Notes: generated by a model not told the origin, from the sequence alone. Counted from the first letter of the stretch, positions 4,908-16,099 are shown. The stretch is 16,099 bases of DNA from an uncultured Bacilli bacterium (GCA_947598285.1 CANQFE010000026.1:1-16099); one strand, 5' to 3'. Program-made: numbers and translations.

Positions 4908-6815
4908 ATGGCAAAAGAAAATACTTACGATGAACATTCAATTAAAATATTAGAAGGATTAGAAGCAGTAAGAAAACGTCCAGGAATGTATATTGGTTCT
5001 ACGGATAAAAGAGGCTTACATCATTTAGTTTGGGAGATTGTCGATAACTCAATTGATGAAATTATTAATGGCTATGGAAATTATATTAAAATTTTACTTC
5101 ATAAAGATGGTTCCATCACCATTGCTGATAATGGCCGTGGAGTTCCCATTGGCATGCATGAAAGTGGCAAAAGTACTCCGGAAGTCATTTATACAGTATT
5201 GCATGCTGGTGGAAAATTTGAAAATTCAGGGTATAAAGTATCTGGAGGTCTTCACGGGGTTGGTGGCTCTGTTGTTAACGCCTTATCCTCAAAAATGAGT
5301 GTAATGATTTATCGGGAAGGCAAAATTAGTGAGATTAAATTTCACGATGGCGGGAAAGTAGAAACTCCTTTAAAACAAATTGGCGAATCTAAAAAAACAG
5401 GAACCATTGTCACTTTTTTACCTGATAAAGAAATATTTAAAAATTGTAATTTTTCTTTTACAACAATCTGTGAAAGAATGCAAGAAAGTGCATTTTTACT
5501 TTCCAATGTTACCATTGAAGTCATTGATGAAGAAGATAACTTAAATGCCAAATATCATTATGAAAATGGAATTGTTTCATTTGTAGAATACATAAATGAA
5601 AACTTAAATGCTCTTCATAAACCGATTCATTTTCAAAATAAAAAGAATGAAATTGAAGTGGAAATTGCCATGCAATACACAGACTCTTATAATGAACAAA
5701 TTTTGTCTTTTGTAAACAATGTAAAAACAGGCGATGGTGGTTCTCATGAAGTAGGCTTTAAAACAGGGCTTACCAAAGCTTTTAATGATTATGCCAGAGG
5801 AAATAATATATTAAAAGGCAAAGAAGGCTTAGATGGTGGCGATGTAAGAGAAGGATTATCGGCGATTATCTCTGTCAAAATTCCGGAACACCTTCTTCAA
5901 TTTGAAGGCCAAACCAAAGGAAAATTAGGAACACCAGAAGCCCGTAATGCAGTGGAAAGTGTAACTTATGAAAATTTAAAATTCTTCTTAGAAGAAAATA
6001 AAGAAATTGCTTTAAATATTTTAGAAAAAGCGCAAAAAAGTAAACTAGCGAGAGAAGCAGCAAGAAAAGCAAGAGAACAAGTAAGAAAAGGAACTGGTAA
6101 AAATAATAAAGAAAAAATAGTTGGTGGAAAATTAGTGAAAGCAACCGGTAAAAACTACATACAAAATGAGCTTTTTTTAGTCGAAGGGGATAGTGCTGGA
6201 GGGTCTGCCAAAACATGTCGTAATCGCGAGACTCAAGCAATTTTACCTTTAAGAGGAAAAGTATTAAATTGTGAAAAAGCAAGTCAAAATGATATTGAAG
6301 CCAATCAAGAATTAAAACAAATTGAATATGCCATTGGAGCTGGATTAGGACCTAATTTTGACTATGAAGAAAGTAATTATGGCAAAGTAATCATTATGAC
6401 TGATGCCGATGTGGATGGCTCACACATTCAAATTCTTTTGATTACCTTCTTTTATCGTTTCATGCGCCCTTTAATTGAACATGGAATGCTTTATATCGCG
6501 ACACCACCTTTATATTCCATTGAAACAAGTAAAGGAAAAGAATATATCGCGACAGATGAAGAATTACAAGAAAAGAAAAAAGGCAAAAATAATTTAAAAG
6601 TGCAACGTTTTAAAGGTTTAGGCGAAATGGATGCAAGAGAGCTTTATGAAACCACGATGGATCCTAAAAATCGCCGTCTTTATCGGGTTAATTTAACAGA
6701 TGCCGCTTTAGCAGAAAAAAGAATTCATGTTTTAATGGGTGATGAAGTTGCCCCTCGAAAAGAATGGATCAATGAAAATGTTGATTTTACATTAGAAGAT
6801 GATTTTAGAATTTAG
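4908..6815 (+). CDS. parE: DNA topoisomerase IV subunit B
   Basis: 635 aa type IIA topoisomerase B subunit. GHKL ATPase N-terminus (ILEGLEAVRKRPGMYIGS, HHLVWEIVDNSIDE). Toprim motifs LVEGDSAGGSAK, PLRGKVLN and MTDADVDGSHI. Called ParE rather than GyrB because the adjacent A subunit has ParC signatures. Confidence 0.85.
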   Translation: MAKENTYDEHSIKILEGLEAVRKRPGMYIGSTDKRGLHHLVWEIVDNSIDEIINGYGNYIKILLHKDGSITIADNGRGVPIGMHESGKSTPEVIYTVLHAGGKFENSGYKVSGGLHGVGGSVVNALSSKMSVMIYREGKISEIKFHDGGKVETPLKQIGESKKTGTIVTFLPDKEIFKNCNFSFTTICERMQESAFLLSNVTIEVIDEEDNLNAKYHYENGIVSFVEYINENLNALHKPIHFQNKKNEIEVEIAMQYTDSYNEQILSFVNNVKTGDGGSHEVGFKTGLTKAFNDYARGNNILKGKEGLDGGDVREGLSAIISVKIPEHLLQFEGQTKGKLGTPEARNAVESVTYENLKFFLEENKEIALNILEKAQKSKLAREAARKAREQVRKGTGKNNKEKIVGGKLVKATGKNYIQNELFLVEGDSAGGSAKTCRNRETQAILPLRGKVLNCEKASQNDIEANQELKQIEYAIGAGLGPNFDYEESNYGKVIIMTDADVDGSHIQILLITFFYRFMRPLIEHGMLYIATPPLYSIETSKGKEYIATDEELQEKKKGKNNLKVQRFKGLGEMDARELYETTMDPKNRRLYRVNLTDAALAEKRIHVLMGDEVAPRKEWINENVDFTLEDDFRI

Positions 6816-6823
6816 GTGAATGT

Positions 6824-9301
6824 ATGGCAAAGAAAAAAGAAGAAAAGTCAATTGTGGAAAAAATAAGTGATTATAGTTTAGAAGAAATTATGGAAACAGG
6901 TTTTGCAAGATACTCCAAAGAAATTATTCAAGAAAGAGCTTTACCTGATGTAAGAGATGGTCTAAAACCAGTTCAACGTCGTATTTTATATGCAATGCAT
7001 TTGTTTCATTATACACATGATAAACCTCATCGAAAAAGTGCCAAAGCCGTGGGAGATATTATGGGTAATTTCCATCCTCATGGAGATTCTTCCATTTATG
7101 ATGCGATGATTCGAATGAGTCAAAAATGGAAAATGCGTGAAGTTTTTATTGATATTCATGGCAATAATGGCTCGATTGATGGCGATGGACCAGCCGCGAT
7201 GCGTTATACCGAAGCAAGACTTTCCAAAATAGCTGAAACAATGATGGATTCCATAAAAAAAGACACCGTCGAAATGGCTTATAATTTTGATGATACGGAA
7301 TTAGAGCCAACCGTTTTACCAGCTGGATTTCCTAATTTGCTAGTGAATGGTTCAACTGGTATTTCAGCAGGATATGCGACCAATATCCCAACTCATAATT
7401 TAAGTGAAGTGATTGACGCGACGATTAAAAGAATCGATTCACCTAACTGTAAATTAGAAACAATTATGGAAATTATGCCGGGACCAGATTTCCCAACGGG
7501 CGGTGTTGTGGAAGGAAAAGAAGGTCTTGTTGAAGCTTATACGACAGGAAAAGGAAAAGTGGTTGTGAAATCTCAAACCGAAATCGTAGATAGTGGCAGT
7601 AAAAAACAAATCATTGTTCATTCCATTCCTTACGAAGTCATCAAAGAACAACTGATGAAAAAGATTATTGAAATTAAAGTCGATAAAAAAATTGAGGGAA
7701 TTAGTGATGTCATTGATGAAAGTGATGCCGACCATATGGCGCGAATCATCATTGATTTAAAAAAAGATGCCAATCCCAATTTAATCCTTAGTTATTTACT
7801 AAAAAATACCGATTTACAAATCAATTATAACTTTAATATGGTCGCGATTGTAAATAGAAGACCAAAATTAGTTGGTGTTTTAGATATTTTAGATGCTTTT
7901 ATTACTCACCAAAGAGAAGTAATAAGAAGAAGAACTGAATTTGATTTAAATAAAGCTAAATTTGATTTTCATATTTTAGAAGGTTTGATGAAGGCCATTA
8001 GTATTTTAGATGAAGTAATCGCGACTATCCGGAAAAGTAAAAACAAAGCCGATTCCATTGACAATTTATGCAAAAATTTTGATTTTACTTATGACCAAAG
8101 TAAAGCCATTGTTGAATTACAACTTTATCGTTTAAGTAATACAGATATTGAAGAAATCAAAGAAAGAATGAAAGAACTAGAAAAAAATATGCATATTTGG
8201 ACCCAGATTTTAGAAAATGAAGAAGCCTTAAAACATGTCATGAAAACAGAATTAAGATTATTAAAGAAAGAATATGGAAATCCTCGCCGAACTGAAATCA
8301 AAGAAGAAGTAACTGAAATTAAAATTGACATGAAAAGTATGATTCCAAAAGAAAAAGTGGTTGTTTTAATTACCAAAGAAGGATATGTAAAAAGAGTAAG
8401 TAATAAATCCTTCATAGCTAATAATGAAGAACCAGCAATGAAACCAGGAGATTATATCACTGCTTTATTTGATGTAACGACCCAAGACCATCTGCTATTG
8501 TTTACTAATTTAGGAAATTATATTTTCTTACCAGTTCATAAAATTCCAGAAGCTAAATGGAAAGAAATCGGAAAACATATCAATAATATTGTCACGATGA
8601 CTCCAGAAGAAAAAATCGTCGCGTCCTTTATTTACCAAAAAGAAGAAAAAATTGTTAGTGTTACCAAAAATGGTATGATTAAAAAAACCAAAGCTAGTGA
8701 CTATGAAGTAAGTAGAACGAGCAAAGCCATGATTTCGATGAAACTAAAAGAACACGATGAAGTCGTAAAAGTTGTAAGTGCTAAGACGAATATCATGGTA
8801 GTTACCAAAAATGGCTATTATTGTAACTTTAATTCCATTGAAATTCCTTTGGTTGGTGTAAGAGGTTCTGGAGTAAAAGCCATATCCTTAAAAGAAGATG
8901 AAGTTGTATCTTTAATCACATGGCAAGAAGAAGAATATTTAACTATTTTTACGAATCAAAAAACTGCAAAAAGAATAAAACTAAGCGAAATGGATATAAC
9001 AGGACGAGCCAAAAGAGGAAGTACACTTCTAAAAAAAGTAAAAAGTGTTCCTTACTTCGTTTTAAGTGCATTTGTAAGTGATGCAAGAAGCCTTCTTACT
9101 GTTGTAGAAGAAGAAAATACAATAGAGTTGAAAAACAGTGAAATTCCAATTATGGATACTGCGAGCACAGGTTCTGTGATTACCAAAAAGAAAATGATAG
9201 ATGCTTTTTTAAAAGTAAATTTAGTAAGTAATCAAAAAGAAGAAAATGCTTCTATAGAAAAAGAAGTTCAACTCGATTTTAATATTGAAGATTTTAAATG
9301 A
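6824..9301 (+). CDS. parC: DNA topoisomerase IV subunit A
   Basis: 825 aa. FARYSKEIIQERALPDVRDGLKPVQRRILYAM is the Gram-positive ParC-type N-terminus (GyrA has SYLDYAMSVIV..RALPD and PVHRR). The QRDR is HPHGDSSIYDAMIRMSQ and the catalytic Tyr lies in AAMRYTEARL. I saw no GyrA-box (QRRGGKG) at the start of the C-terminal domain. AGGTGA RBS; 8-nt gap after parE. Confidence 0.88.
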   Translation: MAKKKEEKSIVEKISDYSLEEIMETGFARYSKEIIQERALPDVRDGLKPVQRRILYAMHLFHYTHDKPHRKSAKAVGDIMGNFHPHGDSSIYDAMIRMSQKWKMREVFIDIHGNNGSIDGDGPAAMRYTEARLSKIAETMMDSIKKDTVEMAYNFDDTELEPTVLPAGFPNLLVNGSTGISAGYATNIPTHNLSEVIDATIKRIDSPNCKLETIMEIMPGPDFPTGGVVEGKEGLVEAYTTGKGKVVVKSQTEIVDSGSKKQIIVHSIPYEVIKEQLMKKIIEIKVDKKIEGISDVIDESDADHMARIIIDLKKDANPNLILSYLLKNTDLQINYNFNMVAIVNRRPKLVGVLDILDAFITHQREVIRRRTEFDLNKAKFDFHILEGLMKAISILDEVIATIRKSKNKADSIDNLCKNFDFTYDQSKAIVELQLYRLSNTDIEEIKERMKELEKNMHIWTQILENEEALKHVMKTELRLLKKEYGNPRRTEIKEEVTEIKIDMKSMIPKEKVVVLITKEGYVKRVSNKSFIANNEEPAMKPGDYITALFDVTTQDHLLLFTNLGNYIFLPVHKIPEAKWKEIGKHINNIVTMTPEEKIVASFIYQKEEKIVSVTKNGMIKKTKASDYEVSRTSKAMISMKLKEHDEVVKVVSAKTNIMVVTKNGYYCNFNSIEIPLVGVRGSGVKAISLKEDEVVSLITWQEEEYLTIFTNQKTAKRIKLSEMDITGRAKRGSTLLKKVKSVPYFVLSAFVSDARSLLTVVEEENTIELKNSEIPIMDTASTGSVITKKKMIDAFLKVNLVSNQKEENASIEKEVQLDFNIEDFK

Positions 9302-9341
9302 TAAAAAATGATTTTCGACATAAAATATGGTAGGTGATTTT

Positions 9342-9704
9342 ATGAACGAGAAAAAAGAAGAATTTAAATCATTTGCCAAAATGCATCCTGAATTAATTAA
9401 TTATGTCAAAAATGGGGAAATGTCATGGCAAAAATTTTATGAAATTTATGATATTTATGGACCAAATGATTCTGCTTGGAACTCGTATTTTAAAACAACA
9501 GAAAATACGGTAAATAATGACGCAATGGGAGCAATCACCAATAAAATCCGTAATATCAATATGAATTCAATTCAAGAACACATTAAAACTGCTCAAAAAG
9601 CTTTAAATTTAGTCAGTGAACTAACAGGCAAAGCAGAGTCTTCGATTGGAAATGTCACACCACCAAAAGTTCCAAGACCAATTAATCAATTTTTCGAGGA
9701 TTAG
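9342..9704 (+). CDS. ylbD: YlbD-like small protein (YlbD_coat family)
   Basis: The EEFKSFAKMHPELINYVKNGEMSWQKFYEIYDIYGPNDSAWNSY pattern and the PRPINQFFED C-terminus match my recollection of B. subtilis YlbD. I prefer the ATG at 9342 (TAGGTGA RBS 5 nt upstream) to the track start at 9327. Confidence 0.55.
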   Translation: MNEKKEEFKSFAKMHPELINYVKNGEMSWQKFYEIYDIYGPNDSAWNSYFKTTENTVNNDAMGAITNKIRNINMNSIQEHIKTAQKALNLVSELTGKAESSIGNVTPPKVPRPINQFFED

Positions 9705-9927: not shown

Positions 9928-9932
9928 AAATG

Positions 9933-9960
9933 AAAAGCTTAAGTTTTGCTTTTTTCTTTT
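9933..9960 (+). terminator. Possible weak terminator after the ylbD/ylbE-like pair
   Basis: AAAAGC (9933-9938), a 9-nt loop, GCTTTT (9948-9953), running into TTTCTTTT. It is a short AU-rich stem. Confidence 0.3.
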
Positions 9961-9983
9961 GGAAAAAAAATAAGAGTCATAAA

Positions 9984-10012
9984 TTGACATTTCATAAAAA
10001 ATTGGGTAGAAT
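9984..10012 (+). promoter_or_regulatory. Near-consensus sigma-A-type promoter
   Basis: TTGACA (9984-9989), exactly 17-nt spacer, TAGAAT (10007-10012). It lies ~20 nt upstream of the AGGTGA RBS and ATG at 10032. Confidence 0.5.
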
Positions 10013-10031
10013 AAAACTCCAGGTGAAAGAA

Positions 10032-10460
10032 ATGAAAGAAATCAAAATGCAATACCGAATAGGCACACATTCTTATACCAAAGAAATTCCTTTTTTAAAT
10101 ATGAGTCTTTTAGAAAAACAATTTTCTCTTTCCATCCCTTTAATTACTGGAGCTACCTTAAGTTGGAAAATGAAAAAAAAATATGAAAATTATAATATTT
10201 ATGTAGGCAAAGAAATTTCTTTAAATCATATTGATGAAGAAAAATATAAATTAGAAAAATATCAAATTTCTTTAGAAGAATTAGCTGATTTAGCTGTAAA
10301 AGGTTATAAAAGAGCCTGTATTTTAAACTTTAAAAAATATGATCAAGTGATTGTTGGTGTGGAAGAAAATGCCTTAGTAGTTCCTGATTATTTTGCCTTA
10401 AAAAAAACCTTTTTTCAAATGAAACATATGATAGAAAGTATTTCAAAGGAAAGCTTATAA
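10032..10460 (+). CDS. Hypothetical protein (142 aa), no recognisable motifs
   Basis: I chose the ATG at 10032 (AGGTGAAAGAA-ATG) because the 5' extension to 9930 would run through the predicted terminator and promoter and encodes a basic, low-complexity peptide. Coding is inferred only from ORF length and the RBS. Confidence 0.5.
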   Translation: MKEIKMQYRIGTHSYTKEIPFLNMSLLEKQFSLSIPLITGATLSWKMKKKYENYNIYVGKEISLNHIDEEKYKLEKYQISLEELADLAVKGYKRACILNFKKYDQVIVGVEENALVVPDYFALKKTFFQMKHMIESISKESL

Positions 10461-10536
10461 ATTAAGCAATATAATAATTAATACTCTTTGGAGAGTGTGA
10501 AAAATTCTAAAAATAAATTTCAAATATAACATGATT

Positions 10537-12415
10537 GATAAAAAATATAAGGGAGGTTTGTATGAATTATAATGTCGATTTTGATATAGAATTAACTTTA
10601 CTTTCAGCAGAAGAAATTTTTGGGAAAAATAAATTAGATGTTCTAAGAAAATATGGAACTTCATCTGCAATTACTGATTTAGCTATTTTAACTGGGGGTG
10701 ATTGCTGTAATATGACTCTTGGTCCTAGTTTAAAAGACCGTACGGGACCGTATTATACAAAATCTCCTGGTATTAATGGAAAGGTACTGGGCATTTATGG
10801 AGATGGTGAAAGAGCTAGCTTTCATCCATGTATTCGCAGTATTGCTATTCGTCCCGTTATAAAAAACTCTACAATCTTTGATTCTCTCTATCCAAACAGA
10901 ATAAAGGATTATAATGGATGTGAAGTAGTGGAGTTCGGAGAGTATCCTCAATATACTCCAATCTTCGATGTACAAGAATTATTAGAAAAAGAATATCAAG
11001 TAATAGGTTTACGTAAAACAGGGAGAAAATATACTTTTGATTCTACAGCTTCTGATAATTATTCCCAATCTTTTCAACCTGTTACTTATAATGAATATGA
11101 ACATAAAGGGAAAAAATATATTAGAGTAGAAGCAAGATCCCGTTTTAGCTATTTTCAGTTATCAAATGAGCAAAAATATAAAAATGGAGATAATGTATGG
11201 GTAGAAGTCTCTCCAGTTGTATGGTTGATAGATGAGGAAACAAAAAGTTTGGTATGTAAAAGAGGAATTTTGTCTGGAATCCTATTTCATACAGGTTCTA
11301 AAAAATACAATGGTGATTTTAAAACAACAGAAATGAAAAAATATTTAGATAAACATATGTCAAAAGAATTATTTCAAAACATAACATTGGAAGAATATCA
11401 AAAACCAGAAGAACAAGAAATAAAAGCTAAAAAAAGAATAAACCCTTATGGATTAAAGTTTAACAATGTAAGTGAAGAAGATATAATAAAAGGATCGATT
11501 GAAAGTGGAGTTCCTGTATTTTTACATGGACCATCAAGTGAAGGAAAAAGTGCTAGAGTAAAACAAATTGATCCCGATTGTACAATTATTTATTTAAGAA
11601 ATGCAACACCTGATAGTTTGAATGGCAAAAGTGTTTATCATTCAGAAACAGGAGAAATGATAGATGTAAAACCAACATGGTTAAAAAAATTAGAAACGAA
11701 ATGTGAAAATGAACCAGAGAAATTACATATCGTATTCTTTGATGAACTTACAAATGCATTACCAAGTATCCAAGGAATTGCTTTTAATATAATATTAGAT
11801 AAAGAAGTGAATGGAATATGGAAGTTACCAGAGAATGCCAGAATCGTTGCAGCAGGAAATGAAATGAAAGATTCCTTATCAGCCAATCAACTATCTGAAC
11901 CATTATTTAATCGATTTGCCCATGTTTATATAAAAACAACTACAGAAAGTTGGTTACAATGGGCAAGTGAACATCATATTCATCCAGCAATTTATTCATA
12001 TATAGCATATAAAAAGGGAAAAACATTAAGAAGTAAATATGATGGCGAAAAACCAAATGCTGATCCAAGGAAATGGGAAATGGCCTCAAAGATGCTTTAT
12101 GCTACAGGAAAACCAGAGATGTTAAGAGCTTTAGTAGGAGAAGAAATTACGAAAGATTTTGTAGAGTTTTGTAAGCAAGAAGTAATCACATTAAAAGATG
12201 TGCTACAAGATAACTATAGCAAAGAAGATATTCAAAGACTCAATACAGCATCGAAATATGCAACAGCAGTAACATTATCTCAAGTAGATGAAGAGAATAT
12301 GGCAAAGGTAAGGCAATTCATTACAAATTTAGGAGCAGAATTTGTAGCAATATTTGATTCATTATGGAGTCAAGAAAATGAATCAAGATTAGAACAAGTT
12401 TTAGAACAAAGACTT
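10537..12415 (+). repeat. Direct duplication, copy A (RBS plus almost the whole ATPase gene); perfect core at 11422-12328
   Basis: Aligned by eye to 14160-16045 (offset 3623-3624 at the 5' end, 3630 after a 6-nt indel). Every 60-nt row from 11422 to 12328 is identical to 15052-15958. Confidence 0.95.
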
Positions 12416-12436
12416 GTATTAGGAGGTAAACGCTAA
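10562..12436 (+). CDS. AAA+ ATPase of the MoxR/AAA_5 type with a ~285-aa N-terminal extension (DUF6273-like modules); paralogue A
   Basis: ATG at 10562 with a GGGAGG RBS; the track start at 10535 is a TTG. Walker A is GPSSEGKS (11528-11551). Walker B is HIVFFDELTNA (D394 E395 at 11741-11746). There is a sensor-1-like ARIVAAGN and an Arg-finger-like EPLFNRFAHVYI, followed by a helical C-terminal region. The N-terminus carries AITDLAILTGG ... PYYTKSP ... IRPVIK and EFGEYPQ ... VVWLIDEE ... TTEMKKYLDKHMSKELF. Confidence 0.8.
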   Translation: MNYNVDFDIELTLLSAEEIFGKNKLDVLRKYGTSSAITDLAILTGGDCCNMTLGPSLKDRTGPYYTKSPGINGKVLGIYGDGERASFHPCIRSIAIRPVIKNSTIFDSLYPNRIKDYNGCEVVEFGEYPQYTPIFDVQELLEKEYQVIGLRKTGRKYTFDSTASDNYSQSFQPVTYNEYEHKGKKYIRVEARSRFSYFQLSNEQKYKNGDNVWVEVSPVVWLIDEETKSLVCKRGILSGILFHTGSKKYNGDFKTTEMKKYLDKHMSKELFQNITLEEYQKPEEQEIKAKKRINPYGLKFNNVSEEDIIKGSIESGVPVFLHGPSSEGKSARVKQIDPDCTIIYLRNATPDSLNGKSVYHSETGEMIDVKPTWLKKLETKCENEPEKLHIVFFDELTNALPSIQGIAFNIILDKEVNGIWKLPENARIVAAGNEMKDSLSANQLSEPLFNRFAHVYIKTTTESWLQWASEHHIHPAIYSYIAYKKGKTLRSKYDGEKPNADPRKWEMASKMLYATGKPEMLRALVGEEITKDFVEFCKQEVITLKDVLQDNYSKEDIQRLNTASKYATAVTLSQVDEENMAKVRQFITNLGAEFVAIFDSLWSQENESRLEQVLEQRLVLGGKR

Positions 12437-12831
12437 TGAATCAAGATAAAATAAACCTTTTAAAAAATTATATTTCGGCTAACGTTGCACCTATCCTAAT
12501 AGATTTTGTTTCTGATATTCATCTTTCAAATTCAATTTCGATACCAGCAAATTGTGATGAATCAGATTTTAATGGGCATTTTCTTGGAAAAGAGTTTTTA
12601 CCACCTAAATGGTATTATGAATTAATTCATAAAAAAGATACCAAAGTAATTGTTATTAATAATATTGATAGTATTTCAAAAGAAGAACAATTAAAATTTA
12701 AAGAGTTACTAAAGTATAAGCAAGTCGCAACATTTAAAATACCAGAAAAAACAAGAATTATTTTAACAGCTAAAAAGGTGAATAAAAATACCATCAATGA
12801 AGAAATATATTCTTTAGTCGCGCATATTTGA
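12436..12831 (+). CDS. Small protein (131 aa) resembling a degenerate AAA+ half-domain with no Walker A and Walker B DE replaced by NN
   Basis: TAATG overlap with the upstream stop (12434-12436 / 12436-12438), with AGGAGG at 12421-12426. The C-terminal 75 aa (PPKWYYELIHKKDTKVIVINNIDSISKEEQLKFKELLKYKQVATFKIPEKTRIILTAKK..INEEIYSLVAHI) align by eye with the upstream ATPase segment PTWLKKLE..KLHIVFFDELTNALPSIQGIAFNIILDKEVNGIWKLPENARIVAAGN..LSEPLFNRFAHVYI. Confidence 0.6.
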   Translation: MNQDKINLLKNYISANVAPILIDFVSDIHLSNSISIPANCDESDFNGHFLGKEFLPPKWYYELIHKKDTKVIVINNIDSISKEEQLKFKELLKYKQVATFKIPEKTRIILTAKKVNKNTINEEIYSLVAHI

Positions 12832-12841
12832 AGGTAAGATT

Positions 12842-14161
12842 ATGAATTGTGATGTAGAATTGATAAAAAGAAAAATGCTTGTAAAATATCCTTTTTTTGG
12901 TAGTGTTATAGCTAATGTTGATTATAAAGAAAATATGGAGATTGAAAGAGCATGTACGGATGGAATGACAATATATTTTAATCCAAATTCTTTAAAGCGA
13001 ATAAAAATGGAAGAACAAATTTTTATTTTTGCACATGAAGTGTGTCATATTGCTTTTGATCATATTAATAGAAGTGAAGGCAAAGATTTCAAAATATGGG
13101 ATATTGCCACGGATGGTGTTATAAACCAATTTTTAAAACGGGATGGTTTAAAAATTCCTAATGGTATGATAGATATACCCGAAGCAATCAATTATGATGC
13201 TGAAGAATTGTATGAAAAATTACTAAAAAAGAACCAACAAAACAAAGAACAAAATAGCCAAGGTGATTTGCAAAAACAACGAGACTCATCAGGGCAAAAA
13301 AATTCTTCAGATGAAGAAAACTCTTTTGAAAACCAAAATAATGATGTAAATCATGATACTCATAGTATGTGGAAAGATGCATTAAAAAGAAAAAAAGAAA
13401 ATGAAGAAATGAAAAAACAACAAGAAAATAAATTACAACAAGAAATCGATAAAATTAGTGACATGGGTGAAAAAGAAGCTTTTCATAAGAATTTAGAAGA
13501 AAAAAAACAGGAATTAGAAACATTAAAACAAGTTTTATCTAAAGAATTAATGAAAGCTGGAACATCTACGAATGAAGAGCAATTTACCATAGATGATATA
13601 GGAAAATCTAAACCGATGATAGATTGGAGATATGTTCTAAGAGAAGCGATTCAATATGATGTTGATTGGTCTTATAAAAATGCTTATATTGAGGATGGTG
13701 TAATAAGTGCAAATTTAGAAGAACAACCTTTGCCTGAAACAGAAATTTTATTAGATACTAGTGGTTCTATAGATGAATCTCTTCTTAAAAACTTTTTAAG
13801 AGAATGTAAAAATATTTTACAATATTCCAAAATAAAAGTTGGTTGTTTTGATGACAAATTTTATGGATTCCATGAAATTAGAAACGAAAAAGATATAGAA
13901 AATATGAAGTTTGAAGGTAAAGGAGGAACAGATTTTACTGTTGCGGTAAAAGCATTTACAAGAAGAGTAGAAAACAAAATCATTTTTACGGATGGATATG
14001 CAAGTATGCCAGATATTTCATTAAATGCTATTTGGATCGTTTTTGGAACAGAAGAAATTAAACCTAAAGGTGGAAAAGTAATTCAAATAAATGAAGAACA
14101 ATTAAATAGATTATATTCTCTTGAACAAGATATGTCTTATAAAAGAAAAAAAGAATTATGA
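12842..14161 (+). CDS. Putative metallopeptidase (HExxH) plus von Willebrand A-like protein, DUF2201_N/DUF2201 architecture
   Basis: N-terminus YPFFGSVIANV ... CTDGMTIYFNPN ... FIFAHEVCHIAFDH (HEVCH at 13034-13048) ... WDIATDGVINQFL ... DAEELYEKL. C-terminus has MIDAS-like LLDTSGSID (DTSGS at 13754-13768), GKGGTDFT and IIFTDGYASMP...AIWIVF. A ~120-aa Q/N/K/E-rich linker sits between them. GAAGGTAAG RBS; 10-nt gap after the upstream gene. Confidence 0.8.
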   Translation: MNCDVELIKRKMLVKYPFFGSVIANVDYKENMEIERACTDGMTIYFNPNSLKRIKMEEQIFIFAHEVCHIAFDHINRSEGKDFKIWDIATDGVINQFLKRDGLKIPNGMIDIPEAINYDAEELYEKLLKKNQQNKEQNSQGDLQKQRDSSGQKNSSDEENSFENQNNDVNHDTHSMWKDALKRKKENEEMKKQQENKLQQEIDKISDMGEKEAFHKNLEEKKQELETLKQVLSKELMKAGTSTNEEQFTIDDIGKSKPMIDWRYVLREAIQYDVDWSYKNAYIEDGVISANLEEQPLPETEILLDTSGSIDESLLKNFLRECKNILQYSKIKVGCFDDKFYGFHEIRNEKDIENMKFEGKGGTDFTVAVKAFTRRVENKIIFTDGYASMPDISLNAIWIVFGTEEIKPKGGKVIQINEEQLNRLYSLEQDMSYKRKKEL

Positions 14162-16045
14162 TAGAAAAATATAAGGGTGGTTTGTATGAATTTTAATATC
14201 GATTTTGATATAGAATTAACTTTACTTTCAGAAGAAGAAATTTTTGGGAAAAATCAATTAGATGTTCTAAGAAAATATGGAACTCAATCTGCGATCACTG
14301 ATTTAGCTATTTTGACAGGTGGGATTTGCAGCAAAAAGTGTTATGTTCCTGATGATACTAGTTTAAAAGGTCGTACAGTACCGTATTATACAAAATCTTC
14401 TTTTTATGAGAACGATCTATGTATAGATTTAGCTGGCAATATGATGTTTAGACATCGTTGTAGCCGATCTGAAGGCATTCGTCCCATTATAAAAAACTCT
14501 ACAATCTTTGATTCTCTCTATCCAAACAGAATAAAGGGTTATAATGGATGTGAAGTAGTGGAGTTCGGAGAATATCCTCAATATGCTCCAATTTCCGATG
14601 TACAAGAATTATTAGAAAAAAAATATCAAGTAATAGATTTACGTAAAACAGGGAAAAAATATACTTTTGATTCTACAGCTTACAGTAATTTTTCCCAATC
14701 TTTTCGACCTGTTACTTATGAGGAATATGAATATAATGAAAAAAAATATATTAGAGTAGAAGCAAGATCCTGTTGTCAAGATTTTCAGTTATCAAATTAT
14801 GAAGAATATAAAAATGGAGATAATGTATGGGTAGAAGTCTCTCCAGTTGTATGGTTGATAGATGAGGAAACAAAAAGTTTAGTATGTAAAAGAGGACTTT
14901 TGTCTGGAATAAGATTTCATACAGATTCTAAAAAATACAATGGTGATTTTAATACAACAGAACTGAAAGAATATTTAGATAAACATATGTCAAAAGAATT
15001 ATTTCAAAATATAACATTGGAAGAATATCAAAAACTGGAAGAACAAGAAAAAAAAGCTAAAAAAAGAATAAACCCTTATGGATTAAAGTTTAACAATGTA
15101 AGTGAAGAAGATATAATAAAAGGATCGATTGAAAGTGGAGTTCCTGTATTTTTACATGGACCATCAAGTGAAGGAAAAAGTGCTAGAGTAAAACAAATTG
15201 ATCCCGATTGTACAATTATTTATTTAAGAAATGCAACACCTGATAGTTTGAATGGCAAAAGTGTTTATCATTCAGAAACAGGAGAAATGATAGATGTAAA
15301 ACCAACATGGTTAAAAAAATTAGAAACGAAATGTGAAAATGAACCAGAGAAATTACATATCGTATTCTTTGATGAACTTACAAATGCATTACCAAGTATC
15401 CAAGGAATTGCTTTTAATATAATATTAGATAAAGAAGTGAATGGAATATGGAAGTTACCAGAGAATGCCAGAATCGTTGCAGCAGGAAATGAAATGAAAG
15501 ATTCCTTATCAGCCAATCAACTATCTGAACCATTATTTAATCGATTTGCCCATGTTTATATAAAAACAACTACAGAAAGTTGGTTACAATGGGCAAGTGA
15601 ACATCATATTCATCCAGCAATTTATTCATATATAGCATATAAAAAGGGAAAAACATTAAGAAGTAAATATGATGGCGAAAAACCAAATGCTGATCCAAGG
15701 AAATGGGAAATGGCCTCAAAGATGCTTTATGCTACAGGAAAACCAGAGATGTTAAGAGCTTTAGTAGGAGAAGAAATTACGAAAGATTTTGTAGAGTTTT
15801 GTAAGCAAGAAGTAATCACATTAAAAGATGTGCTACAAGATAACTATAGCAAAGAAGATATTCAAAGACTCAATACAGCATCGAAATATGCAACAGCAGT
15901 AACATTATCTCAAGTAGATGAAGAGAATATGGCAAAGGTAAGGCAATTCATTACAAATCTAGGAGCAGAATTTGTCGCAATATTTGATTCATTATGGAAT
16001 CAAGAAAATGAATCAAGGTTAGAACAAGTTTTAGAACAAAGACTT
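14160..16045 (+). repeat. Direct duplication, copy B; perfect core at 15052-15958
   Basis: See copy A. The duplication starts at the stop codon of the vWA gene and includes the RBS (AAGGGTGG versus AAGGGAGG). Confidence 0.95.
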
Positions 16046-16099
16046 ACAAATTCAGTAGAAAAAAGAATATTACAAAAAAACGTTGAATTAAAAATTTAA
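14186..16099 (+). CDS. AAA+ ATPase of the MoxR/AAA_5 type with a diverged N-terminal extension; paralogue B
   Basis: ATG at 14186 (the track start at 14177 is a GTG) with an AAGGGTGG RBS. The Walker A, Walker B and sensor motifs are the same as in paralogue A, within the identical tract. The N-terminus differs (GGICSKKCYVPDDTSLKGRTVPYYTKSSFYENDLCIDLAGNMMFRHRCSRSEGIRPIIK) and the C-terminal tail is distinct (TNSVEKRILQKNVELKI). The TAA stop is the last 3 bases of the window. Confidence 0.8.
   Translation: MNFNIDFDIELTLLSEEEIFGKNQLDVLRKYGTQSAITDLAILTGGICSKKCYVPDDTSLKGRTVPYYTKSSFYENDLCIDLAGNMMFRHRCSRSEGIRPIIKNSTIFDSLYPNRIKGYNGCEVVEFGEYPQYAPISDVQELLEKKYQVIDLRKTGKKYTFDSTAYSNFSQSFRPVTYEEYEYNEKKYIRVEARSCCQDFQLSNYEEYKNGDNVWVEVSPVVWLIDEETKSLVCKRGLLSGIRFHTDSKKYNGDFNTTELKEYLDKHMSKELFQNITLEEYQKLEEQEKKAKKRINPYGLKFNNVSEEDIIKGSIESGVPVFLHGPSSEGKSARVKQIDPDCTIIYLRNATPDSLNGKSVYHSETGEMIDVKPTWLKKLETKCENEPEKLHIVFFDELTNALPSIQGIAFNIILDKEVNGIWKLPENARIVAAGNEMKDSLSANQLSEPLFNRFAHVYIKTTTESWLQWASEHHIHPAIYSYIAYKKGKTLRSKYDGEKPNADPRKWEMASKMLYATGKPEMLRALVGEEITKDFVEFCKQEVITLKDVLQDNYSKEDIQRLNTASKYATAVTLSQVDEENMAKVRQFITNLGAEFVAIFDSLWNQENESRLEQVLEQRLTNSVEKRILQKNVELKI

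Follow-up and report, generated by a model that had tools for sequence, protein, structure and literature searches.

A cassette of four genes at positions 10562-16099 of a 16,099-nt stretch of DNA from an uncultured Bacilli bacterium (GCA_947598285.1 CANQFE010000026.1:1-16099; the whole stretch is referred to here as the window) encodes two MoxR-like ATPases and a putative zinc peptidase. On balance, it probably represents a member, devoid of reverse transcriptase (RT), of a family of cytoplasmic variable-receptor ATPase/protease systems in gut Bacilli and some Clostridia. In relatives of the cassette the N-terminal head of the ATPase is the target of a diversity-generating retroelement (DGR). 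We infer from this architecture that the cassette is probably a conflict system.

The four genes, termed A, B, C, and D, all lie on the + strand. Gene A (10562..12436, 624 aa) encodes an N-terminal variable-head module joined to a predicted MoxR-like AAA+ ATPase, as judged from its open reading frame (ORF), a match to phrog_1297, hhalign, and motifs. Gene B (12436..12831, 131 aa) is recognised by hhalign as a putative P-loop-less copy of the AAA+ alpha/beta core. Gene C (12842..14161, 439 aa) encodes a DUF2201_N zincin, a linker, and a DUF2201 von Willebrand factor A (vWA) domain, identified by Pfam, phrog_1314, and motifs. Gene D (14186..16099, 637 aa) is a paralogue of A, established by its ORF, alignment, and motifs, which has the same motor, another head patch, and another C-terminal tail. 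A and B meet in a TAATG overlap, followed by gaps of 10 nt between B and C and 24 nt between C and D. These ORF coordinates bear out the compact co-directional layout described in an earlier prediction made from the sequence of the window (the original prediction).

The head of the ATPase as a DGR target in relatives

The connection to DGRs is found in a homologue at 66% identity (P0047, locus L079), where a 339-aa RVT_1 reverse transcriptase is encoded ~90 nt 5' of the ATPase gene. Between a 193-aa gene and this RT lies a 100-nt template repeat (TR, 8581-8680), which is repeated inside the ATPase gene at 10215-10314 as a variable region (VR). TR and VR differ by 12 mismatches, 11 of which fall at TR adenines. 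The 193-aa gene encodes Avd, matching NF033474 over the whole profile (1.9e-5) and Pfam bAvd at 0.01, and its equivalent in locus L089 matches phrog_3206 'Avd protein of DGR' (5.5e-11). The RT of the relatives matches RVT_1 (8e-19), with that of L089 matching phrog_1423 (2.8e-106). The gene order in the DGR-bearing relatives, at least 13 genomes, is Avd - TR - RT - A(VR) - B - C.

When all fetched loci were scanned, the same TR/VR signature emerged in L006-8, L012, L013, L030, L038, L045, L061, and L079-82. The pairs span 80-103 nt and carry 9-14 mismatches each, nearly all at template adenines. Because an upstream TR matches the VR of the head with mismatches almost exclusively at template adenines, the head of A homologues is a DGR target in these relatives. 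Loci L006, L007, L008, and L079 have an identical TR and different VRs that deviate almost only at TR adenines, which indicates that the DGR is active in this lineage. Two further loci, L009 and L010, have an intact RT and no TR copy in their available upstream sequence; compared with an L079-type TR, the mismatches of their VRs fall at adenines in 9/9 and 11/15 cases, respectively.

The head itself is an autonomous module. It covers aa 1-290 of A (10562..11431, + strand), as delimited by an AlphaFold2 model and a cluster search. Modelled alone with a 127-sequence alignment, it reaches a predicted local distance difference test score (pLDDT) of 94.9 and a predicted template modelling score (pTM) of 0.92. 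The N-terminal extension of the ATPase, previously put at ~285 aa, is thus real and forms a module of ~290 aa with a confident independent model. A search with the head against 1.84 billion representatives returned 1557 clusters, many of them stand-alone proteins of ~300 aa, some with the module twice in one protein, and some with it fused to the ATPase.

Alignment with the L079 VR (10215-10314) places the equivalent region of A at aa 68-101 (10763..10864, + strand), ending in a conserved IRPVI, and codon alignment with A places that of D at aa 71-103 (14396..14494, + strand). The VR position coincides with the entropy peak across 89 head sequences, and the VR terminates in a near-invariant IRPVI/VRPAL motif. 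In the head model, a beta-hairpin at aa 75-87 lies inside the VR, and the VR-bearing part is followed by a second beta-rich lobe and then the ATPase. N-terminal variable regions have been called rare among DGR targets (PMC5758913, PMC10743442).

A possible relative of the head is DUF6273, which gut phages use as a C-type-lectin-like DGR target domain and in which a C-terminal VR forms a hairpin (PMC10743442, PMC11792537). DUF6273 is matched by 5/127 family members; P0250 and P0352 pass the Pfam cutoff, with the match covering the C-terminal, VR end of the profile. These matches suggest, as a lead, that the head may be distantly related to this domain.

The ATPase motor and its partner proteins

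The ATPase part of A (11432..12436, + strand) includes a helical C-terminal region and carries Walker A K329, Walker B D394/E395, sensor 1 N433, and the arginine R451. In A the motifs are GPSSEGKS at residue 323 (containing K329), IVFFDE at 390, RIVAAGN at 427, and NRF at 450; in D the same motifs begin at 325, 392, 429, and 452. All four are invariant among 38 ATPase homologues. Both A and D match the phrog_1297 ATPase at ~1e-50 (2.5e-50 for A). Profile comparison by hhalign aligned the ATPase with E. coli RavA (probability 76%, E 2.3e-5, 182 columns), with Walker A/B, sensor 1, and Arg finger in register, and with a 'MoxR-like ATPase' of an N4-like Vibrio phage (probability 98%, E 3e-14). 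Owing to these alignments and the phrog_1297 match, A and D are classed by sequence as MoxR-like AAA+ ATPases, though they fall below Pfam's AAA_5 threshold (PF07728; 17.3 and 17.0 bits where 22 are required, over profile positions 66-139 alone). AAA_5 is matched by 3/127 family members, with E down to 9.7e-6. The MoxR/AAA_5 assignment of the original prediction is therefore supported in its MoxR-like part, through RavA and the phage ATPase, and not in its AAA_5 part, which is sub-threshold (17 vs. 22 bits). Sequence and profile searches of the PDB with A, the head, and B returned no match, and an NCBIfam search of the cassette proteins gave no assignment. An AlphaFold2 model of full-length A, built on a shallow alignment, had a pLDDT of 46.6 and was unusable.

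Gene B appears to encode an inactivated AAA core derived from the ATPase. The B family aligns with the A family by hhalign (probability 76%, E 2.3e-5), such that B 7-131 corresponds to A 307-455 and B has a gap in place of the Walker A segment. The suspected dead AAA fragment thus gains support, as B aligns over its full length with the AAA core of A, with the P-loop deleted. Its 276 homologues are all ~130 aa long and none has a Pfam match.

The protein encoded by C combines the two halves of the DUF2201 architecture. It matches DUF2201_N at 7.4e-33 (114.7 bits, cutoff 23.2) and the vWA domain DUF2201 at 1.6e-14 (54.5 bits, cutoff 26.4), so that both Pfam domains of the predicted zincin-vWA protein with HExxH and metal ion-dependent adhesion site (MIDAS) motifs are well above their cutoffs. 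It also matches phrog_1314 (7.1e-64). The zinc motif HEVCH occupies residues 65-69 (E66) and the MIDAS motif DTSGS residues 305-309 (D305); along with the ATPase motifs, both were located at the residues that the original prediction had named. A DxSxS MIDAS is present in 59/59 complete C homologues and HExxH in 61/69. The zincin and vWA domains are joined by a K/E/Q/N-rich low-complexity linker (13215-13575, C residues ~125-245), and the vWA domain is the last in the protein, with nothing C-terminal to it. The homologues range from 369 to 761 aa in length. A PDB search with C gave a sole, weak match, that of the HExxH region to the minimal zincin MJ1213. A 'TR/VR' pair detected in locus L048 was rejected as spurious, as it sits in the low-complexity linker of C.

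Duplication of the ATPase gene

The duplicated segment extends over 10536..12415 in the first copy and 14159..16045 in the second (both + strand), as determined by blastn and a MAFFT identity profile. A and D are 100% identical across ~11453-12300 (~850 nt of the ATPase part), and their heads are 92-95% identical over most of their length. Identity drops to ~43-55% in one patch (A 10700-10864, D 14324-14494). Codon alignment of its 84-nt core gives 35 identical positions, 46 different positions, and a one-codon indel. The description of a constant motor with diversified heads is thus borne out, with motors identical over ~850 nt and divergence that peaks at the VR position.

Comparison of the window with the European Nucleotide Archive (ENA) contig L001 shows 37 differences, every one of them within the duplicated ATPase genes (11567-12110, 14881-15740). 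Of these, 12/37 are identical changes that recur in the two copies at a constant offset of 3630 nt. Other assemblies contain chimeric A/D proteins (P0243, P0001, P0245). Such concerted changes and chimeras fit either gene conversion between the paralogues or consensus effects of the assembler.

Both the concerted differences and the chimeras, together with the stretch of complete identity and the contig breaks at repeat edges, are what would be expected if D were an assembly artefact in which strain variants had been collapsed into a false tandem. This is scarcely credible. The A-B-C-D order was found again in the independent assemblies L001 and L002, the latter from an independent sample, in which the ends of the repeat are exactly where the contig breaks. 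The nearest relatives, rabbit-gut 'Bacilli' metagenome-assembled genomes (MAGs; L004, L052, L085), carry an A-B-C-A' arrangement with different sequences. D, moreover, ends in 3' sequence found only there and joins C upstream through a junction of its own; arrays of paralogues are common in this family. With the same order present both in independent assemblies and in the closest relatives, the duplication is real and no assembly artefact.

Distribution and variation of the family

Relatives of the cassette were found in at least 75 species-level genomes, mostly gut MAGs labelled Bacilli or Tenericutes, with hosts such as Coprobacillus sp. CAG:605 and Candidatus Faecisoma. In Clostridia (Zhenpiania, Lentihominibacter) there is a second group, which is without B. 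The A-B-C unit is conserved in ~60 loci and A-C occurs in 17. Flanks vary between genomes and consist mostly of ordinary chromosomal genes. In locus L084, the closest relative, NlpC/P60, Peptidase_C39_2, and HipA_C (toxin kinase) genes (6640-9544) lie 3' of the A-B-C-A' genes; its contig begins 104 nt 5' of A.

Sufficient upstream sequence to judge RT status was available for 62 loci. A full RT is present in 13, ~90 nt 5' of the A homologue, frameshifted or truncated remnants in 6, and none in 43. Short or frameshifted RT fragments lie just 5' of the A homologue in L014, L026, L029, L032, and L035. RT pseudogene remnants in several loci indicate that the DGR has repeatedly been lost from the cassette. 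Among the nearest relatives of the window, L005, L037, L041, L049, and L051 have no RT upstream, and none was seen in L004, the upstream sequence of which is lacking.

ATPase paralogue arrays occur in 6 RT-less loci vs. 1 RT-bearing locus. Identical paralogue motors with heads that differ most around the VR are found in the window, L042, and L063. The two heads of L004 are 90-95% identical around the VR, with no dip there. In L024 (8539-17956), three additional copies of A follow RT-A-B-C, spaced by exactly 1967 nt, and all four VRs are identical; its TR/VR pair has 18 mismatches, 11 at adenines. This array reflects either recent amplification in tandem or an artefact of assembly.

A head-less form of the core exists in L087 (8937-11654) and L088, where an ATPase of 355-367 aa, a B of 131 aa, and a C of 417 aa are encoded among housekeeping genes. 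The existence of this form suggests that the variable head was added to a pre-existing three-gene core.

Proposed function and alternative explanations

The maximum hydropathy over 19 residues is no higher than 1.2 in A, B, C, and D. As there is thus no membrane or signal-like stretch in any of them, a cytoplasmic location is indicated. The head may serve as a ligand-binding surface that catches a variable cytoplasmic ligand, most plausibly a protein of a phage or another invader. Binding would alter the state of the ATPase ring, in which B could serve as a non-hydrolysing subunit or as a cap. The target of the ring would then be the vWA domain of C, which would dock via its MIDAS in the manner of other MoxR-vWA pairs. 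This might switch on the zinc peptidase of C, which would cut the captured ligand or, alternatively, a host target. In RT-bearing genomes the receptor repertoire would be made by hypermutation. In this genome it would consist of two fixed paralogues that use one motor sequence, one B, and one C. An 'antigen sensor' reading has been proposed for DGR-coupled MoxR-vWA systems (PMC7159879, PMC10907252), and by analogy the present family would fit it.

A broader proposal can be put forward tentatively, at rather less than even confidence. The family would constitute a compact, DGR-programmable immune system of receptor, motor, and protease in the cytoplasm of unicellular, small-genome gut bacteria. 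Genomes without RT would hold paralogue arrays, with motors kept identical by gene conversion, and the same engine would explain gp24/gp25 of N4-type phages.

Several results weigh against the reading of the cassette as a variable-receptor system. The earlier idea of a sensor head is considerably strengthened by the DGR targeting of the head in relatives, but the window itself is without DGR machinery: no RT, TR, or Avd was detected in its 16 kb, even at E = 10, and it contains no third copy of the VR patch that could be a candidate TR. The differences between the VRs of A and D were not adenine-specific and include an indel, and the two VRs are consequently not products of one TR. The variable patches of A and of D are unchanged across all assemblies seen, so that these static VRs give no sign of ongoing diversification in this locus. 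The heads of A and D in the window do not match Pfam DUF6273. A C-type lectin (C-lec) fold of the head lacks structural confirmation, since Foldseek comparison of the head model with the PDB and BFVD gave no C-type lectin or other fold at E <= 0.001. No known system was recognised when the four proteins were searched against PADLOC-DB 2.0 as a check for known defence systems, the best hits being to unrelated candidate models at E 0.014-0.76. The A-B-C unit is conserved, but housekeeping genes and not defence islands flank both this locus and several related ones; the flanks of the window, L079, and L087 are ordinary chromosomal genes. Finally, of the three papers found to contain the term DUF2201, none, to judge from title and abstract, dealt with this protein family, and no experiment was found on any DUF2201/MoxR pair.

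Static VRs and a locus set among housekeeping genes would suit a chaperone-type MoxR-vWA system that matures or assembles a fixed client, as do RavA-ViaA, CbbQ-CbbO, and NorQ-NorD, with the two heads acting as adaptors for two clients. The ATPase also aligns with RavA motif for motif, and its partner has a vWA domain with a MIDAS. Such a system is nonetheless an unlikely explanation. Hypermutation of the head by a DGR in relatives would be senseless for a fixed client, and a receptor that is both hypermutated and cytoplasmic is hard to reconcile with a fixed cellular one. No client gene is conserved beside the cassette, where flanks differ between genomes, and the conserved zincin on the vWA protein is a further point against it. 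A second alternative is a domesticated or mobile phage module of the N4 gp24/gp25 type that serves prophage biology, for example superinfection exclusion or particle assembly, and not host immunity. It draws on the matches to phrog_1297 (~1e-50) and phrog_1314 (7.1e-64), a pair found side by side near replication genes in Schitoviridae, and on gp24 and gp25 (vWFA) being N4-like core genes of unknown function (PMC4193335). In addition, one IMG/VR contig has Avd-RT-A-B-C ~3 kb from a prophage lysis module. This was 1 confirmed relative among 2.9 million viral contigs scanned, a search of viral contigs for the head family gave none, and the phage homologues are only ~24-30% identical and have neither head nor B. 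With no phage genes in the window, L079, L084, or L087, a phage module seems improbable.

Cellular DGR targets are mostly predicted to be membrane-anchored binders (PMC8144416), and phage receptor-binding proteins contain DUF6273 domains (PMC10743442). For this reason, the most frequent role of DGR targets in cells, that of a variable adhesin at the surface or secreted, was considered as well. It is disfavoured and would be very surprising, given that none of the four proteins shows a membrane or signal-like segment and that the motor to which the head is joined is ATP-dependent and hence necessarily cytoplasmic. A cytoplasmic variable receptor coupled to an ATPase and a protease is thus the preferred reading of the cassette, and the window holds a static member of a family that is compact, widespread in gut commensals, and experimentally approachable. 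The five-gene unit (Avd, TR-RT, A, B, C) is small enough for cloning. It provides a testable role for the widespread DUF2201 zincin-vWA proteins and their ATPase partners, N4-like phage core genes included. Furthermore, RT-bearing single-copy and RT-less multi-copy loci form a natural comparison of hypermutation vs. gene arrays as repertoire stores.

Genomic setting of the cassette

The window has a GC content of ~29% and represents nearly the whole of a metagenomic contig (ENA ERZ27060228 NODE_1304, 16,227 nt). The ribosome-binding site of gene A, AGGGAGG (10550..10556, + strand), was read from the sequence 5 nt 5' of the ATG at 10562. Upstream of the cassette lie an rsmB-like methyltransferase gene, eno (enolase), parE, parC, ylbD, and ylbE. 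When flank synteny was compared across loci, only L005 (eno) and L022 (parC) had an upstream gene in common with the window. Scans for promoters, terminators, and Rfam families found nothing above chance.

Two further ORFs precede the cassette. ORF1 (1-1230, 409 aa) has a weak PKD domain match, and its C-terminus, '...NVACEVRPALYLK', resembles the IRPVI/VRPAL motif that closes the VR. A relationship to the head was ruled out, with an hhalign probability of 0.7% and merely the 12-residue 'VRPAL' motif in common. The second, a 176-aa ORF (9930-10460) flanked by ylbE and gene A, matches no family, and none of the other loci has a relative of it. It was considered as a relic of Avd and ruled out, as BLASTP gave E 0.028, there was no Pfam match, and tblastn with Avd or RT was empty.

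At the other end, three contigs of different assemblies (16151, 16201, and 16227 nt) all terminate ~30-130 nt past the stop codon of D. The positions concerned are 16099 in the window, the contig end, and 13258-13288 in L001. There is probably a repeated sequence just beyond D, possibly a further paralogue.

Comparison with known systems

RavA-ViaA resembles the cassette in its alignable AAA+ motifs and in a downstream partner with a MIDAS vWA domain. RavA has no variable N-terminal head, however, and ViaA has no zincin; the pair also has neither an inactivated AAA subunit nor a link to DGRs. A parallel in gene content is gp24/gp25 of N4-like phages (PMC4193335), in which a phrog_1297 ATPase adjoins a phrog_1314 DUF2201 'vWFA' protein. 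The same adjacency is found in Vibrio virus SBP1. These phage ATPases are ~350-380 aa long and 24-30% identical, with no variable head, no B, and no DGR, and an HNH gene may intervene between the two genes.

On the receptor side, tentaclins and other DUF6273 DGR targets (PMC10743442, PMC11792537) belong to DGRs associated with gut Firmicutes, as here. These are extracellular virion proteins in which Ig domains follow, whereas the putative, distantly related domain here is followed by a beta-rich lobe and an ATPase. Fusions of C-lec and AAA domains have been reported as DGR targets in candidate phyla radiation (CPR) bacteria (as cited in PMC10907252). Like A and D, these combine a DGR variable domain and an AAA-type ATPase in one polypeptide, but they belong to another RT clade and other host phyla, and no DUF2201 partner is reported in that citation. 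'Midasin' UVR4 proteins have also been described as DGR targets (PMC5758913). A large survey of DGRs (PMC8144416) names no ATPase, AAA, MoxR, or vWA target in its main text.

The logic of the family is shared by the VMAP ternary systems (Kaur et al. 2020, PMC7159879; Dore et al. 2024, PMC10907252), which likewise couple a MoxR ATPase and a vWA protein with a peptidase and a DGR-diversified ligand-binding domain. They too are predicted to be cytoplasmic, with the variable domain proposed as a sensor of invaders. The components are distributed differently. The ternary systems carry the variable FGS/C-lec domain at the C-terminus of the vWA protein, and the present family at the N-terminus of the ATPase. 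The trypsin or caspase peptidase of the ternary systems resides on a separate VMAP protein, whose N-terminal domain can also be a cyclase or an adaptor, whereas the cassette fuses a zincin to the vWA domain and has no further gene apart from that for the extra P-loop-less AAA protein B. The ternary systems are DGR-associated, unlike the window, and their hosts are cyanobacteria, actinobacteria, and purple sulfur bacteria, in contrast to the small-genome unicellular gut Bacilli and Clostridia considered here. DGR-coupled MoxR-vWA logic, described as a hallmark of multicellular bacteria, may thus extend in a smaller architecture to common unicellular gut commensals.

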